Source: a virus
Lineage: Duplodnaviria; Heunggongvirae; Uroviricota; Caudoviricetes
Strand: one strand, 5' to 3'
Length of the DNA stretch: 7,736 nucleotides
IMG/VR virus record: IMGVR_UViG_648276645_000001
Positions 1,285 through 5,520 of the stretch are shown in pieces. The stretch's first letter is position 1. Each line of letters starts with the position of its first letter. The translations under genes were made by a program, and so were the position numbers. Under the pieces are notes generated by a model. The model worked only from the letters and a program-made list of their open reading frames with translations. It was not told the origin of the DNA and did no database searches.

Positions 1285-1330
1285 AGGTTGCTCCGGGCTA
1301 TGAAATAGAAAAATGAATCCGTTGAAGCCT

Positions 1331-1345
1331 GCTTTTTTATACTAA
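1331..1345. other. attL core (15-bp common core O of lambda site-specific recombination) at the host/prophage junction
   Basis: Exact GCTTTTTTATACTAA at 1331-1345. Left flank (gaagcct) reads like the bacterial B arm; right flank (gttggcattataaaaaagcattgc...) reads like the lambda P' arm, giving the BOP' arrangement. Confidence 0.9.
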
Positions 1346-1370
1346 GTTGGCATTATAAAAAAGCATTGCT

Positions 1371-1422
1371 TATCAATTTGTTGCAACGAACAGGTCACTA
1401 TCAGTCAAAATAAAATCATTAT
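1371..1422. promoter_or_regulatory. P' arm protein-binding sites: IHF site H' and three Int arm-type sites P'1-P'3
   Basis: TATCAATTTGTTG at 1371-1383 fits the IHF consensus WATCAANNNNTTR. Three consecutive arm-type-like decamers: caggtcactat (1391-1401), cagtcaaaat (1402-1411), aaaatcattat (1412-1422). Last site overlaps the int stop codon as in lambda. Confidence 0.75.
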
Positions 1423-2489
1423 TTGATTTCAATTTTGTCCCACTCCCTGCCTCTGTCATCACGATACTGTGATGCCATGGTGTCCGACTTATGCCCGAGA
1501 AGATGTTGAGCAAACTTATCGCTTATCTGCTTCTCATAGAGTCTTGCAGACAAACTGCGCAACTCGTGAAAGGTAGGCGGATCCCCTTCGAAGGAAAGAC
1601 CTGATGCTTTTCGTGCGCGCATAAAATACCTTGATACTGTGCCGGATGAAAGCGGTTCACGACGAGTAGATGCAATTATGGTTTCTCCGCCAAGAATCTC
1701 TTTGCATTTATCAAGTGTTTCCTTCATTGATATCCCGAGAGCATCAACATGCAATGTTGTTGGGATGGCAATTTTTACGCCTGTTTTGCTTTGCTCGACA
1801 TAAAGATATCCATCTACGATATCAGACCACTTCATTTCGCATAAATCACCAACTCGTTGCCCGGTAACAACAGCCAGTTCCATTGCAAGTCTGAGCCAAC
1901 ATGGTGATGATTCTGCTGCTTGATAAATTTTCAGGTATTCGTCAGCCGTAAGTCTTGATCTCCTTACCTCTGATTTTGCTGCGCGAGTGGCAGCGACAGG
2001 GTTTGTTGTTATATGGCCTTCAGCTATTGCCTCTCGGAATGCATCGCTCAGTGTTGATCTGATTAACTTGGCTGACGCCGCCTTGCCCTCGTCTATGTAT
2101 CCATTGAGCATTGCCGCAATTTCTTTTGTGGTGATGTCTTCAAGTGGAGCATCAGGCAGACCCCTCCTTATTGCTTTAATTTTGCTCATGTAATTTATGA
2201 GTGTCTTCTGCTTGATTCCTCTGCTGGCCAGGATTTTTTCGTAGCGATCAAGCCATGAATGTAACGTAACGGAATTATCACTGTTGATTCTCGCTGTCAG
2301 AGGCTTGTGTTTGTGTCCTGAAAATAACTCAATGTTGGCCTGTATGGCTTCAGTGATTGCGATTCGCCTGTCTCTGCCTAATCCAAACTCTTTACCCGTC
2401 CTTGGGTCCCTGTAGCAGTAATATCCATTGTTTCTTATATAAAGGTTAGGGGGTAAATCCCGGCGCTCATGACTTCGCCTTCTTCCCAT
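1419..2489 (-). CDS. int: Integrase (lambda Int, tyrosine recombinase)
   Basis: 356-aa ORF starting MGRRRSHERRDLPPNLYIRNNGYYCYRDPRTGKEF, which I recognise as lambda Int. Catalytic-region motifs present (HELRSL...R, HLLGHKSDTMASQYRDD with the Tyr nucleophile). Sits next to attL and overlaps xis by 23 bp as in lambda. Confidence 0.97.
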   Translation of the reverse strand: MGRRRSHERRDLPPNLYIRNNGYYCYRDPRTGKEFGLGRDRRIAITEAIQANIELFSGHKHKPLTARINSDNSVTLHSWLDRYEKILASRGIKQKTLINYMSKIKAIRRGLPDAPLEDITTKEIAAMLNGYIDEGKAASAKLIRSTLSDAFREAIAEGHITTNPVAATRAAKSEVRRSRLTADEYLKIYQAAESSPCWLRLAMELAVVTGQRVGDLCEMKWSDIVDGYLYVEQSKTGVKIAIPTTLHVDALGISMKETLDKCKEILGGETIIASTRREPLSSGTVSRYFMRARKASGLSFEGDPPTFHELRSLSARLYEKQISDKFAQHLLGHKSDTMASQYRDDRGREWDKIEIK

Positions 2490-2685
2490 TTCTGATCCTC
2501 TTCAAAAGGCTACCTGTTACTGGTCGATTTAAGTCAACCTTTACCGCTGATTCGTGGAACAGATATTCTCTTCCATCCTTAACCGGAGGAGGGAATATCC
2601 TGCATTCGCGCACCCATCGACGAACTGTTTCAAGGCTTCTTGGGCGTCGCTGGCGAGCGTTCCACTCCTGAAGTGTCAAGTACAT
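2467..2685 (-). CDS. xis: Excisionase (lambda Xis)
   Basis: 72-aa ORF MYLTLQEWNARQRRPRSLETVRRWVRECRIFPPP..., recognised as lambda Xis; 3' end overlaps the int start. Confidence 0.95.
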   Translation of the reverse strand: MYLTLQEWNARQRRPRSLETVRRWVRECRIFPPPVKDGREYLFHESAVKVDLNRPVTGSLLKRIRNGKKAKS

Positions 2686-2711
2686 CGCAAAGTCTCCGCA
2701 ATTACACGCAA
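2670..2711 (-). promoter_or_regulatory. pI-like promoter (cII-activated int promoter) with TTGC-N6-TTGC cII-binding repeats
   Basis: Minus strand reads TTGCGTGTAATTGCGGAGACTTTGCGATGTACTTGACA. TTGC tetrads at 2708-2711 and 2698-2701 (plus coordinates), overlapping the xis start as in lambda pI. Boundaries approximate. Confidence 0.6.
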
Positions 2712-2733
2712 GAAAAAACCGCCATCAGGCGGC
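2711..2733 (-). terminator. Putative intrinsic terminator hairpin (GC stem with 4-nt loop, then a T6 run on the minus strand)
   Basis: Minus strand CCGCC-TGAT-GGCGG followed by TTTTTT. Stem is only 5 bp. Overlaps the orf55 stop and sits just upstream of the pI -35 region. Lambda counterpart not certain (possibly a tL-series terminator). Confidence 0.4.
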
Positions 2734-2892
2734 TTGGTGTTCTTTCAGTTCTTCAATTCGAATATTGGTTATGTCTGCATGTGCTATCTGCGCCCATATC
2801 ATCCAGTGGTCGTAGCAGTCGTTGATGTTCTCCGCTTCGATAACTCTGTTGAATGGCTCTCCATTCCATTCTCCTGTGACTCGGAAGTGCAT
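2725..2892 (-). CDS. Small hypothetical protein (lambda orf55-like), 55 aa
   Basis: Not in the supplied ORF track (under 60 aa). Hand translation of the minus strand gives MHFRVTGEWNGEPFNRVIEAENINDCYDHWMIWAQIAHADITNIRIEELKEHQAA. Size and position (about 40 bp upstream of xis) match the small ORF annotated between xis and ea8.5 in lambda. Confidence 0.65.
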   Translation of the reverse strand: MHFRVTGEWNGEPFNRVIEAENINDCYDHWMIWAQIAHADITNIRIEELKEHQAA

Positions 2893-2980
2893 TTATCATC
2901 TCCATAAAACAAAACCCGCCGTAGCGAGTTCAGATAAAATAAATCCCCGCGAGTGCGAGGATTGTTATGTAATATTGGGT

Positions 2981-3262
2981 TTAATCATCTATATGTTTTG
3001 TACAGAGAGGGCAAGTATCGTTTCCACCGTACTCGTGATAATAATTTTGCACGGTATCAGTCATTTCTCGCACATTGCAGAATGGGGATTTGTCTTCATT
3101 AGACTTATAAACCTTCATGGAATATTTGTATGCCGACTCTATATCTATACCTTCATCTACATAAACACCTTCGTGATGTCTGCATGGAGACAAGACACCG
3201 GATCTGCACAACATTGATAACGCCCAATCTTTTTGCTCAGACTCTAACTCATTGATACTCAT
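2981..3262 (-). CDS. ea8.5: Ea8.5 protein (lambda early accessory protein, Cys/His-rich)
   Basis: 93-aa ORF MSINELESEQKDWALSMLCRSGVLSPCRHHEGVYVDEG...CPLCTKHIDD, recognised as lambda Ea8.5. AAGGAG RBS 7 nt upstream on the minus strand. Confidence 0.9.
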   Translation of the reverse strand: MSINELESEQKDWALSMLCRSGVLSPCRHHEGVYVDEGIDIESAYKYSMKVYKSNEDKSPFCNVREMTDTVQNYYHEYGGNDTCPLCTKHIDD

Positions 3263-3453
3263 TTATAAACTCCTTGCAATGTATGTCGTTTCAGCTAAAC
3301 GGTATCAGCAATGTTTATGTAAAGAAACAGTAAGATAATACTCAACCCGATGTTTGAGTACGGTCATCATCTGACACTACAGACTCTGGCATCGCTGTGA
3401 AGACGACGCGAAATTCAGCATTTTCACAAGCGTTATCTTTTACAAAACCGATC

Positions 3454-3765
3454 TCACTCTCCTTTGATGCGAATGCCAGCGTCAGACATCATATGCAGAT
3501 ACTCACCTGCATCCTGAACCCATTGACCTCCAACCCCGTAATAGCGATGCGTAATGATGTCGATAGTTACTAACGGGTCTTGTTCGATTAACTGCCGCAG
3601 AAACTCTTCCAGGTCACCAGTGCAGTGCTTGATAACAGGAGTCTTCCCAGGATGGCGAACAACAAGAAACTGGTTTCCGTCTTCACGGACTTCGTTGCTT
3701 TCCAGTTTAGCAATACGCTTAACAGAAAGGCCGGGAAATACCCAGCCTCGCTTTGTAACGGAGTA
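3454..3765 (-). pseudogene. ea22: ea22 C-terminal fragment (5'-truncated); fused in frame to antisense O sequence, giving a 179-aa chimeric ORF (3454..3993)
   Basis: C-terminal ~90 codons (KRIAKLESNEVREDGNQFLVVRHPGKTPVIKHC...DAGIRIKGE) read as real protein and lie 192 bp from ea8.5, the lambda spacing. The N-terminal ~90 codons (MFVRSSFGLLAVTTACCLLRL...) are low-complexity and are the reverse strand of O coding sequence. Upper boundary is approximate (junction between about 3720 and 3772). Confidence 0.65.
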
Positions 3766-3766
3766 G

Positions 3767-4021
3767 ACGAAAGTGATCGCACCTAACGATATCCGCCTGA
3801 TGCGTGAACGTGACGGACGTAACCACCGCGACATGTGCGTGCTGTTCCGCTGGGCCTGCCAGGACAACTTCTGGTCCGGTAACGTGCTGAGTCCGGCCAA
3901 ACTCCGCGACAAGTGGACCCAGCTCGAAATCAACCGTAACAAGCAACAGGCAGTCGTGACAGCCAGCAAACCAAAACTCGACCTGACAAACACAGACTGG
4001 ATTTACGGGGTGGATCTATGA
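3767..4021 (+). pseudogene. O: Replication initiator O, C-terminal fragment only (P-interaction domain); N-terminus and ori absent
   Basis: Open frame begins just after an in-frame TAG at 3764-3766. Translation ...IAPNDIRLMRERDGRNHRDMCVLFRWACQDNFWSGNVLSPAKLRDKWTQLEINRNKQQAVVTASKPKLDLTNTDWIYGVDL matches my memory of the lambda O C-terminus. Stop overlaps the P start (ATGA). No ori iterons or AT-rich region upstream. Confidence 0.85.
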
Positions 4022-4719
4022 AAAACATCGCCGCACAGATGGTTAACTTTGACCGTGAGCAGATGCGTCGGATCGCCAACAACATGCCGGAACAGTACGA
4101 CGAAAAGCCGCAGGTACAGCAGGTAGCGCAGATCATCAACGGTGTGTTCAGCCAGTTACTGGCAACTTTCCCGGCGAGCCTGGCTAACCGTGACCAGAAC
4201 GAACTGAACGAAATCCGCCGCCAGTGGGTGCTGGCTTTCCGGGAAAACGGGATCACCACAATGGAACAGGTTAACGCAGGAATGCGCGTAGCCCGTCGGC
4301 AGAATCGACCATTTCTGCCATCACCCGGGCAGTTTGTTGCATGGTGCCGGGAAGAAGCATCCGTTATCGCCGGACTACCAAACGTCAGCGAGCTGGTTGA
4401 TATGGTTTACGAGTATTGCCGGAAGCGAGGCCTGTATCCGGATGCGGAGTCTTATCCGTGGAAATCAAACGCGCACTACTGGCTGGTTACCAACCTGTAT
4501 CAGAACATGAGGGCCAATGCGCTTACTGATGCGGAATTACGCCGTAAGGCCGCAGATGAGCTTGTCCATATGACTGCGAGAATTAACCGTGGTGAGGCGA
4601 TCCCTGAACCAGTAAAACAACTTCCTGTCATGGGCGGTAGACCTCTAAATCGTGCACAGGCTCTGGCGAAGATCGCAGAAATCAAAGCTAAGTTTGGGCT
4701 GAAAGGAGCAAGTGTATGA
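4018..4719 (+). CDS. P: Replication protein P (DnaB helicase loader)
   Basis: 233-aa ORF MKNIAAQMVNFDREQMRRIANNMPEQYDEKPQVQQVAQIINGVFSQLL..., recognised as lambda P with the lambda length; translationally coupled to O' and ren. Confidence 0.96.
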   Translation: MKNIAAQMVNFDREQMRRIANNMPEQYDEKPQVQQVAQIINGVFSQLLATFPASLANRDQNELNEIRRQWVLAFRENGITTMEQVNAGMRVARRQNRPFLPSPGQFVAWCREEASVIAGLPNVSELVDMVYEYCRKRGLYPDAESYPWKSNAHYWLVTNLYQNMRANALTDAELRRKAADELVHMTARINRGEAIPEPVKQLPVMGGRPLNRAQALAKIAEIKAKFGLKGASV

Positions 4720-5006
4720 CGGGCAAAGAGGCAATTATTTATTACCTGGGGACGCATAAGAGCTTCTGTGCGCAGGACGTTGCCGCGGTAACAGGCGCAA
4801 CAGTAACCAGCATAAATCAGGCTGCGGCTAAAATGGCACGGGCAGGTCTTCTGGTTATCGAAGGTAAGGTCTGGCGAACGGTGTATTACCGGTTTGCTAC
4901 CAGGGAAGAACGGGAAGGAAAGATGAGCACGAACCTGATTTTTAAGGAGTGTCGCCAGAGTGCCGCGATGAAACGGGTATTGGCGGTATATGGAGTTAAA
5001 AGATGA
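4716..5006 (+). CDS. ren: Ren protein (protects against Rex exclusion)
   Basis: 96-aa ORF MTGKEAIIYYLGTHKSFCAQDVAAVTGATVTSINQAAAKMARAGLLVIEGK..., lambda Ren-like. AAGGAG RBS at 4699-4704; start overlaps the P stop. Confidence 0.92.
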   Translation: MTGKEAIIYYLGTHKSFCAQDVAAVTGATVTSINQAAAKMARAGLLVIEGKVWRTVYYRFATREEREGKMSTNLIFKECRQSAAMKRVLAVYGVKR

Positions 5007-5030
5007 CCATCTACATTACTGAGCTAATAA

Positions 5031-5066
5031 CAGGCCTGCTAGTAATCGCAGGCCTTTTTATTTGGG
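5031..5066 (+). terminator. Rho-independent terminator, lambda tR2-like
   Basis: 8-bp stem AGGCCTGC (5032-5039) pairing with GCAGGCCT (5048-5055), 8-nt loop, followed by TTTTTATTT. Located between ren and ninB, where tR2 sits in lambda. Confidence 0.8.
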
Positions 5067-5079
5067 GGAGAGGGAAGTC

Positions 5080-5520
5080 ATGAAAAAACTAACCTTTGAA
5101 ATTCGATCTCCAGCACATCAGCAAAACGCTATTCACGCAGTACAGCAAATCCTTCCAGACCCAACCAAACCAATCGTAGTAACCATTCAGGAACGCAACC
5201 GCAGCTTAGACCAAAACAGGAAGCTATGGGCCTGCTTAGGTGACGTCTCTCGTCAGGTTGAATGGCATGGTCGCTGGCTGGATGCAGAAAGCTGGAAGTG
5301 TGTGTTTACCGCAGCATTAAAGCAGCAGGATGTTGTTCCTAACCTTGCCGGGAATGGCTTTGTGGTAATAGGCCAGTCAACCAGCAGGATGCGTGTAGGC
5401 GAATTTGCGGAGCTATTAGAGCTTATACAGGCATTCGGTACAGAGCGTGGCGTTAAGTGGTCAGACGAAGCGAGACTGGCTCTGGAGTGGAAAGCGAGAT
5501 GGGGAGATCGGGCTGCATGA
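5080..5520 (+). CDS. ninB: NinB (Orf-family recombination mediator)
   Basis: 146 aa from ATG 5080 (MKKLTFEIRSPAHQQNAIHAVQQILPDPTKP...), lambda NinB-like with matching length. RBS GGGAGAGGGAAG upstream. The track ORF from 5062 uses an upstream TTG that I regard as not the real start. Confidence 0.92.
   Translation: MKKLTFEIRSPAHQQNAIHAVQQILPDPTKPIVVTIQERNRSLDQNRKLWACLGDVSRQVEWHGRWLDAESWKCVFTAALKQQDVVPNLAGNGFVVIGQSTSRMRVGEFAELLELIQAFGTERGVKWSDEARLALEWKARWGDRAA

Follow-up and report, generated by a model that had tools for sequence, protein, structure and literature searches.

A lambda-type int-xis cassette, very probably stranded in a heavily decayed prophage at the classical lambda attachment site

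The 7,736-nucleotide stretch of viral DNA analysed here (the window) carries, at positions 1419-2733, int and xis genes of lambda type with the cII-dependent promoter pI, and attL adjoins them. The question raised by this locus is whether such a cassette can still excise, or be induced to excise, the element in which it is found. In a preliminary description, made from the sequence of the window alone, Int and Xis, attL with its arm sites and the repeats of pI were considered intact, and cII and the pL/N system were placed inside a deletion; the element was thought to be perhaps unable to excise alone but open to mobilisation in trans, either by cII from a superinfecting lambdoid phage or by read-through transcription. 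Our comparison with the lambda reference (NC_001416) indicates that positions 1419-2733 are, very probably, the site-specific recombination cassette (int, xis and the cII-dependent pI) of a heavily decayed lambdoid prophage located at the classical lambda attachment site.

The entire element was recovered in a public locus, L012, which is 100% identical to the window, was retrieved only via the 82-aa O' ORF and shows both att cores (L012 positions 7559 and 16159) with ybhC and ybhB/bioA as flanks. From core to core the whole remnant, sitting between ybhC and ybhB, measures 8,615 bp and contains int, xis, orf55, ea8.5, ea22', orf60a', O', P, ren, ninB, dam, ninE, ninX, rusA, ylcG, Q, a porin gene and holin'. 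Phage genes are present between the att sites and the immunity, replication, lysis and morphogenesis functions have been lost, as in a defective (cryptic) lambdoid prophage. The left part of the window (1331-3721) runs collinearly with lambda 27724-30114; the alignment needs no gap and has 14 mismatches (99.4% identity). Positions 3783-5520 match lambda 39347-41084 at 98.6% identity. Two deletions with microhomology remove lambda 30115-31257 (1,143 bp) and lambda 31324-39346 (8,023 bp), and with them the content from exo through cIII, N, nutL, pL, rex, cI, cro, cII, the N-terminus of O and the ori iterons (lambda 39034-39118). The proposed location of cII and pL/N within the deletion was therefore correct. 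Positions of the features are collected in Table 1.

Table 1. Features of the window and their lambda counterparts (NC_001416).
Feature	Window position	Strand	Lambda counterpart	Remarks
attL (BOP')	1324..1422	.		core GCTTTTTTATACTAA, 15 bp, 1331-1345; H' IHF consensus ~1371-1383; P'1 1392-1401; P'2 1402-1411; P'3 1413-1422
int	1419..2489	-	lambda Int	heterobivalent tyrosine integrase of lambda type, 356 aa; H164P, A245T and I248V only
xis	2467..2685	-	lambda Xis	excisionase, 72 aa; G59S the sole difference
pI promoter	2672..2711	-	29065-29104 (100% identical)	cII box TTGC-GTGTAA-TTGC (TTGCGTGTAATTGC), 2711->2698
putative pI -10 (from spacing)	2684->2679	-		TGTACT; overlaps xis ATG (2685-2683)
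putative pI start (from spacing)	near 2672	-		about 13 nt past xis ATG
terminator-like hairpin and T-run	2716..2735	-	same place	between orf55 and xis, running directly into the cII box; fold -16.1 kcal/mol, z = -3.3
orf55	2725..2892	-	hypothetical protein lambdap35	55 aa; V41I
two tandem terminator-like hairpins	2912..2963	-	present	between ea8.5 and orf55; fold -24.7 kcal/mol, z = -6.0
ea8.5	2981..3262	-	same protein	93 aa; PF20735
ea22 3' fragment	3454..3721	-	29847-30114	ends at deletion junction 1, TA microhomology
orf60a island	3720..3785	-	31258-31323	66 bp; bears leftward hairpin 3749->3727
deletion junction 2, then O C-terminal 79 codons	3783..4021	+	39347-39585	CTA microhomology
P and ren	4018..5006	+	lambda-like	233 aa and 96 aa; Pfam annotation; mark the right side of the deletion

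The losses extend beyond the window. Pfam annotation of L012 found no CII, N or repressor domain in any gene of the full 8.6-kb element, so that a cII homolog in the remainder of the prophage, which the preliminary description had foreseen as a counter-finding, did not turn up. The lambda cosN 12-mer and the ori iterons are absent throughout the 8,615 bp, where no terminase or structural genes were found either, and an Rfam scan of the whole element returned no known RNA family. A phage satellite or helper-mobilised element would have its own ori and a cos or pac site; here O is cut to 79 codons, and this reading was dropped for an element without ori, cos and regulators. As for the junctions themselves, the first trims one T from the U-tract of the hairpin in the orf60a island (31287->31265 in lambda), which we tentatively take to be tL3, placed just downstream of exo; the papers naming tL3 do so without giving its coordinates. 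Searches for the exact double junction in 5,426 complete E. coli genomes and among the GTDB species representatives gave no match, and the 179-aa ORF spanning the junction is not on record.

In contrast to these losses, the cassette itself closely follows the lambda int-xis-pI-attP module (NC_001416 27724-29104) in gene order, lengths and overlaps, with 99.4% DNA identity, an identical P' arm, core and cII box and the same leftward hairpins. It is unlike that module in the three Int and one Xis substitutions, in having attL in a prophage and in the deletion of pL, N, nutL, cII and cIII upstream. Both proteins are full-length, as had been described. Int keeps all six catalytic residues where lambda has them (R212, K235, H308, R311, H333 and the nucleophile Y342), and its domains are recognised by PF09003 (arm-binding, residues 1-69), PF22022/PF02899 (central, 81-171) and PF00589 (catalytic, E = 1.7e-40). 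Xis is covered over residues 1-72, its full length, by PF07825 (Exc domain, E = 3.9e-41), as expected for a full-length winged-helix excisionase with the C-terminal tail that contacts Int. In the public collection, 25,569 blocks list exactly this Int protein. The int-xis module is present in 36% of complete E. coli genomes, and at least 12 complete genomes have a copy that is 100% identical. One of these is CFSAN061762, whose identical module is part of a P22-like lambdoid prophage that looks complete and has N, cI, cro and cII. The H164P, A245T and I248V alleles of Int and G59S of Xis occur also in complete-looking prophages, with an identical Int at the same site. Judged from these sequences, Int and Xis would be competent proteins, and the cassette, which does not differ at all from the copy in a complete-looking prophage (100% identity), looks competent as well.

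The attL site is likewise preserved, as previously described. Its core, H' and P'1-P'3 (1392-1422) are exactly those of lambda, the first mismatch of the alignment starting at lambda 27724 being found at window position 1659, and P'3 overlaps the int stop codon; the core, H', P'1 and P'2 of an excision-competent prophage are therefore all in place. Site names and positions were assigned from the standard attP map and PMC4880445.

The cassette would nevertheless need to be expressed. In lambda, pI is located within xis and int is transcribed independently of xis (PMC2951348); activation of pI by cII permits the expression of int alone (PMC5300877), and xis and int together depend on pL and N (PMC2951348, PMC5300877). 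In the window, TTGC-N6-TTGC, the pair that in pI-type promoters flanks the -35 region, occurs once, on the minus strand. It precedes the xis ATG by 13-26 nt and coincides with the cII box of lambda pI (lambda 29104-29091), a promoter overlapping the xis start; this bears out the reported presence of the pI repeats. Taken by itself the motif is without significance, 0.6 occurrences being expected by chance and at least one being found in 91 of 200 shuffles; it counts because of this position and of the 100% identity with lambda over 2656-2772. According to the literature and to the geometry of the promoter, activation by cII would give a transcript lacking the xis start codon. Because the promoter and the 5' end of xis overlap, the retained pI does not count as a separate feature, and its survival would be a mere consequence of this physical overlap.

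No route for the co-expression of Xis and Int (pL, N, nutL or an equivalent) was recognised in the element. Both the pL and N route and the cII route were removed by the 8,023-bp microhomology deletion. A promoter scan found no sigma-70-like promoter upstream of xis in window positions 1285-5100, and none turned up within 4.9 kb of that gene; four terminator-like hairpins, without N, are found on the leftward path to xis. Transcription of the cassette is very probably absent, since its sole known expression routes, antitermination by N from pL for xis and int and cII at pI for int alone, are gone; weak or non-consensus promoters may drive it.

Since the transcript of pI would begin inside xis, cII is not expected to drive excision: once supplied, it would lead to Int without Xis, and recombination between attL and attR would not follow. 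Since the element as a whole has lost cII, N and pL, autonomous excision is improbable, in accordance with the earlier suggestion that the element might be unable to excise alone. Excision would be obtained solely with Int and Xis of lambda specificity provided in trans; a phage residing in the same cell or superinfecting it could be such a source. Since a superinfecting phage of lambda type brings its own Int and Xis, the resident pI would be irrelevant. The excised product would be a circle lacking the ori iterons and cos and therefore destined to be lost, i.e. the host would be cured, with a canonical attB left behind, and the element would not be mobilised. In the heteroimmune superinfection curing of lambda lysogens, known from classical genetics, a prophage unable to express its own Int and Xis is excised by those of another phage with the same att specificity, acting in trans. 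A literature search on such curing returned no relevant match, and the likeness is by analogy, the attR of the present element being, unlike that of those lysogens, altered at X1, X2 and H2.

The sites that have to be occupied for excision are X1/X1.5/X2 by Xis, H2 by IHF and P2, P'1 and P'2 by Int (PMC4880445). The attR of the element is present, with core and P2 intact and both att cores identical. X1 reads TATGATG versus TATGTTG, X2 reads TATAC versus TATGT or TATGC, and the H2 core reads ATTGAGATT versus ATTGATATT. The changed positions are conserved in lambda, 434, HK97, HK106, 2B8 and the CFSAN061762 prophage, with Chlobot deviating only at X2. Of the disruption of attR considered in the preliminary description as evidence against it, the conserved arm positions thus show a change and the core does not. 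The substitutions at X1, X2 and H2 may lower the efficiency of excision further. The attR end of the element (L012 15936-16300) and its ATCC 8739 counterpart show 99.7% identity, and ATCC 8739 has the X1 and X2 changes in common with the element and not the H2 change. ATCC 8739 was rejected as an intact carrier of the same attR allele, being itself another remnant that keeps int and xis, and the CFSAN061762 prophage and viable phages were used as controls in its place.

Low-frequency excision is seen in many cryptic prophages whose regulation is degraded, and rare spontaneous excision could be imagined here if enough xis-int mRNA came from read-through or from a cryptic promoter reading leftward, for example one antisense in Q. 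The identical att cores and the intact Int and Xis proteins are consistent with this, as is a near-consensus promoter-like site with 11 of 12 matches at 7602->7573 on the minus strand. That site, however, lies upstream of xis at a distance of 4.9 kb, and the sequence between them is antisense and untranslated, with at least four terminator-like hairpins in the path, N and nutL being absent; promoter-like matches are moreover rarer than expected by chance (1 versus 5.5 and 2 versus 10.1), and attR is altered at its conserved X1, X2 and H2 positions. We consider spontaneous excision unlikely, and the same applies to the read-through previously proposed as an excision route, given the lack of a nearby leftward promoter, the four hairpins and the absence of N.

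Whether selection has preserved the cassette was considered in two forms. The repeated survival of an unmutated int-xis-pI with both att sites, in this element, ATCC 8739, O157:H7 EC4115 and the loci L009 and L011, could be taken as the mark of selection for curing triggered by a helper or for a docking and recombination platform used by incoming lambda-type phages, with deletion-bearing cores shuffled between att sites; we regard this as highly doubtful. Still harder to accept is that the cassette was kept by selection and not by chance or recency, through a benefit to the host from helper-dependent curing, from a docking site for lambda-type phages or from a regulatory role of Int or Xis. 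Independently decayed remnants at the same site (this element, ATCC 8739, L009, L011 and L004, the latter from O157:H7 EC4115) do all retain int, xis and orf55, and the cassette has no private mutation with respect to a complete-looking prophage. Recent decay, or recombination with incoming phages, would however account for zero divergence just as well, and the cassette occupies the extreme edge of the prophage, where deletions removing it would often also hit ybhC. The decay-like changes of attR speak against selection for excision competence, and no expression route remains. Least probable of all is an element poised for mobilisation, in which cII from a superinfecting lambdoid phage would switch on the retained pI and lead to excision, for although the cII box is intact and lambda-identical and int is intact downstream of it, the pI transcript starts within xis and gives Int only where Xis is required (PMC2951348, PMC5300877, PMC4880445), the Int and Xis of the helper act whatever the resident pI does, and a circle without ori and cos would be neither propagated nor packaged; this part of the preliminary description was abandoned.

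On the reading preferred here, a cryptic prophage has been left with a stranded lambda recombination cassette. This is an ordinary, well-understood and already known situation, and the weight of the present result is mainly one of annotation, the cassette being a textbook one, its state common and the remnants at its site already on record. What is gained is a correction: the retained pI carries no functional implication, cII would not be the driver of excision, and a lambda-type helper would cure the host of the element and not mobilise it. For strain engineering, a site that holds attL and attR and not a free attB bears on the use of lambda-based integration tools.

Defective lambda-type prophages at ybhC-ybhB have been catalogued for E. 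coli B and Crooks (PMC3032704). The element resembles lambda*B (E. coli B), lambdaCr (Crooks/ATCC 8739) and Sp3/CP-933K (O157:H7) in attachment site, int/xis type and massive internal loss (PMC3032704, PMC8190617), and differs from the ybhC-ybhB prophages in deletion endpoints and retained genes. Its right half (rusA-ylcG-quuD-porin-essD') is 98% and then 92% identical to K-12 DLP12, although the K-12 nmpC carries IS5 and the porin gene of the element is uninterrupted. DLP12 and the DLP12-like remnants at icd share with it an immunity-region deletion fusing an exo/orf60a fragment to O'/P', but have other integrases and att sites (argU, icd), and the DLP12 breakpoint is located within P. The DLP12-like remnant of RM10410 has the very same orf60a/O junction as the element. 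In the highly doubtful picture of a selected cassette given above, an O' breakpoint in common with icd-site remnants would hint at a shuffling of prophage cores between remnants at different att sites.

Comparison of the window with the lambda reference NC_001416 by blastn gave three collinear blocks, and the features of the window were placed by transfer from the lambda annotation (Table); the nin/Q region following ninB, on the plus strand, is not lambda-like. The 82-aa ORF of the truncated O gene (O') led to a public locus, L012 (scaffold GL883782.1 of GCA_000176535.2), that matches the window at 100% over all 7,736 bases. A second copy of the core is found there at 16159, adjoining ybhB and bioA, and the element measures 8,615 bp, both cores counted. 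All that it contains past the window is the last part of a QuuD-like Q gene, a porin gene (360 aa), a holin fragment (45 aa) and the attR P arm.

Table. Window positions of genes, lambda-collinear blocks and leftward terminator-like hairpins.
Feature	Position	Strand	Remarks
ybhC	1-1284	minus	start of window; followed by lambda attL and left end of lambdoid prophage
Block 1	1331-3721		lambda 27724-30114; 99.4% identity, 14 mismatches, no gaps (blastn)
attL core	1331-1345	minus	lambda annotation
int	1419-2489	minus	lambda annotation
xis	2467-2685	minus	lambda annotation
Hairpin abutting cII box	2735->2716	minus (leftward)	terminator-like
orf55	2725-2892	minus	lambda annotation
Hairpin	2931->2912	leftward	terminator-like
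Hairpin	2963->2942	leftward	terminator-like
ea8.5	2981-3262	minus	lambda annotation
ea22, 3' part	3454-3721	minus	lambda annotation
Block 2	3720-3785		lambda 31258-31323 (blastn)
orf60a island, 66 bp	3720-3785	minus	lambda annotation
Hairpin in orf60a island	3749->3727	leftward	terminator-like; also in lambda at 31287->31265
Block 3	3783-5520		lambda 39347-41084; 98.6% identity (blastn)
Last 79 codons of O, then P, ren, ninB		plus	lambda annotation

Two deletions separate the blocks. Lambda 30115-31257 (1,143 bp) is gone, with TA microhomology at the resulting ea22/orf60a join, and lambda 31324-39346 (8,023 bp) is gone, with CTA at the orf60a/O' join. On the lambda map, the larger deletion removes, from the left, most of orf60a, exo, bet, gam, kil, cIII, ea10, ral and sieB, then N, nutL, pL with its operators, rexB and rexA, then cI, pRM/pR, cro, nutR and cII, and finally the N-terminal two thirds of O, including all four ori iterons. 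No gene with a CII, N or repressor domain was found in the element as it stands in L012, nor did its 8,615 bp contain the lambda cosN 12-mer, an ori iteron or a second TTGC-N6-TTGC repeat; an Rfam scan of the element returned no match. A chimeric maximal ORF of 179 aa (3454-3993, minus strand; L012 9682-10062), which leads from antisense O' across the orf60a island and on into the ea22 fragment, corresponds in the public annotation to a called gene of 126 aa with a DUF1317 match; it was rejected as a real gene, being an artefact of both deletion junctions.

The predicted Int (356 aa) differs from lambda Int by H164P, A245T and I248V, keeps all six residues R212, K235, H308, R311, H333 and Y342, and shows the arm-binding, central and catalytic domains by Pfam, while Xis (72 aa), with G59S as its sole difference from lambda Xis, carries a full-length Exc domain. 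No base departs from lambda before 1659, so the core, the H' IHF site and P'1-P'3 (1392-1422) match it exactly. The pI cII box TTGCGTGTAATTGC (2711->2698, minus strand; lambda 29104-29091) is the only TTGC-N6-TTGC in the window. A bare repeat of this kind is not significant, with 0.6 expected by chance and at least one in 91 of 200 shuffles; the weight of the box lies in its location, 13-26 nt ahead of the ATG of xis (2685), and in full identity to lambda over 2656-2772. With a 17-bp spacer, a -10 element (TGTACT) falls at 2684-2679, overlapping the xis ATG, and the pI start would lie some 13 nt into xis, near 2672, both -10 and +1 being deduced from spacing. The full-length proteins with their catalytic residues, the lambda-identical attL and the cII box thus bear out the preliminary description of a preserved int, xis, attL and pI. 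Retention of pI is uninformative by itself, since the promoter belongs physically to the xis 5' end.

That description also held that, its activators being deleted, the element may be unable to excise on its own, which is reasonable given the loss of cII, N and pL, but could be mobilised through read-through or through cII in trans. Co-transcription of xis and int depends on pL and N antitermination (PMC2951348). Since both genes are transcribed leftward, any read-through must come from the element interior. Between 1285 and 5100 a single sigma-70-like site was found, in the int 3' end, against 5.5 expected by chance, and promoter-like matches across the region overall were fewer than chance expectation. 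The nearest candidate leftward promoter (7602->7573, 11 of 12 matches) lies antisense in Q, 4.9 kb upstream of xis. This promoter-like site (L012 13801-13830; GTGACA, 18-nt spacer, TATAAT) resembles lambda paQ in position but has no cII box. Leftward terminator-like hairpins separate it from xis (Table), and with N and nutL absent these signals would not be overridden; the one in the orf60a island has lost one T of its tail to the ea22/orf60a junction. The hairpin abutting the cII box would end unmodified leftward transcripts immediately before xis. It is GC-rich, and its T-run continues straight into the first TTGC of the box, as in lambda; the terminator has no name known to us. With so distant a promoter-like site, hairpins in the path and no N or nutL, read-through expression of xis-int is unlikely.

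Activation of pI by cII leads to expression of int only (PMC5300877), and the pI geometry in the window is consistent with such a transcript. Since pI would give Int without Xis, and excision requires Xis, cII in trans could not excise the element, and this route is wrong. A superinfecting phage of lambda att specificity carries its own Int and Xis, so that the resident pI is irrelevant; supply of both proteins by a helper would amount to classical heteroimmune curing. Moreover, without ori or cos in the element, excision would mean loss and not mobilisation. The state of the cassette is already known biology.

In excisive recombination three Xis protomers occupy X1/X1.5/X2, IHF binds H2 and H', and Int binds P2, P'1 and P'2, Fis being dispensable (PMC4880445). 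Disruption of attR had been named as a point against mobilisation: attR is present (L012 15964-16177, 87% identity to lambda 27529-27742), keeping the sib/tI hairpin, P1, H1, P2 and an intact core, but is substituted at X1, X2 and H2. Because its B' side has the attB sequence in canonical form, attB would be restored on excision. An alignment of the sequence with attP from viable phages (lambda, 434, HK97, HK106, 2B8 and Chlobot) and with attR from the ATCC 8739 remnant shows natural polymorphism across positions -100 to -10. A separate comparison set attR of CFSAN061762, whose prophage looks complete, against the element and lambda. The substitutions of the element (L012 16030-16160, P arm, outside the window) hit positions conserved in working alleles: X1 reads TATGATG, not TATGTTG, and X2 reads TATAC against TATGT/TATGC (TATCT in Chlobot), both common only to ATCC 8739, and the H2 IHF core reads ATTGAGATT, not ATTGATATT, a change private to the element. 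As these are exactly the sites that excision uses, attR may be weakened as an excision substrate, and the substitutions may represent its early decay.

Within the public collection, 25,569 blocks list the exact Int protein, which lies beside ybhC in intact-looking and variously decayed prophages. Of 5,426 complete E. coli genomes, 1,967 cover at least 80% of the att-int-xis-pI stretch (1331-2740), and at least 12 carry it at 100% identity. In CFSAN061762 the identical module sits within a lambdoid prophage that is P22-like, spans about 39 kb and looks complete, having N, cI, cro, cII and Q as well as replication, lysis and virion genes; the cassette of the remnant therefore has no private mutation. 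The same site in ATCC 8739 is occupied by an independent remnant of some 9 kb that keeps int and xis intact. Published listings of defective lambda-type prophages between ybhC and ybhB include those of E. coli B and Crooks (PMC3032704) and Sp3 of O157 (PMC8190617). The pair of junctions was absent from the 5,426 genomes and from GTDB species representatives, and this rarity makes the element a further variant of decay rather than an element of a new kind.

The O' breakpoint (lambda 39347/8; window 3783-3785, L012 10011-10013; L023 9064-9066; L024 6748) is common to icd-site defective prophages. In Z1323CEC0014 and many other genomes exo (lambda 32002) is joined to O' (39348), and RM10410 has exactly the orf60a/O' junction of the window, within an unbroken match to 3720-4991 at 94.6% identity; in contrast, the O'-P-ren-ninB block of the window is 98.6% identical to lambda itself. 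One right breakpoint, agreeing to within 1 bp, thus accompanies two different left breakpoints, and the att sites differ. A deletion-bearing core may have moved between remnants by homologous recombination, or this position in O may be a hot spot of illegitimate joining.

In its right part (rusA-ylcG-Q-porin-holin') the element is DLP12-like, the identity being 98% at first and then 92%. Its attR end (L012 15936-16300) is 99.7% identical to ATCC 8739 (locus L016, 633-997), both including a short 'nucleocapsid protein' pseudogene fragment, and the ATCC 8739 remnant has otherwise decayed differently; this identity suggests a common ancestral right end or exchange between remnants. The porin gene (L012 14153-15235, minus strand, outside the window; PF00267), which adjoins Q, is uninterrupted, whereas its homologue nmpC in K-12 DLP12 is split by IS5, and it is a likely candidate for host-beneficial cargo of the remnant.
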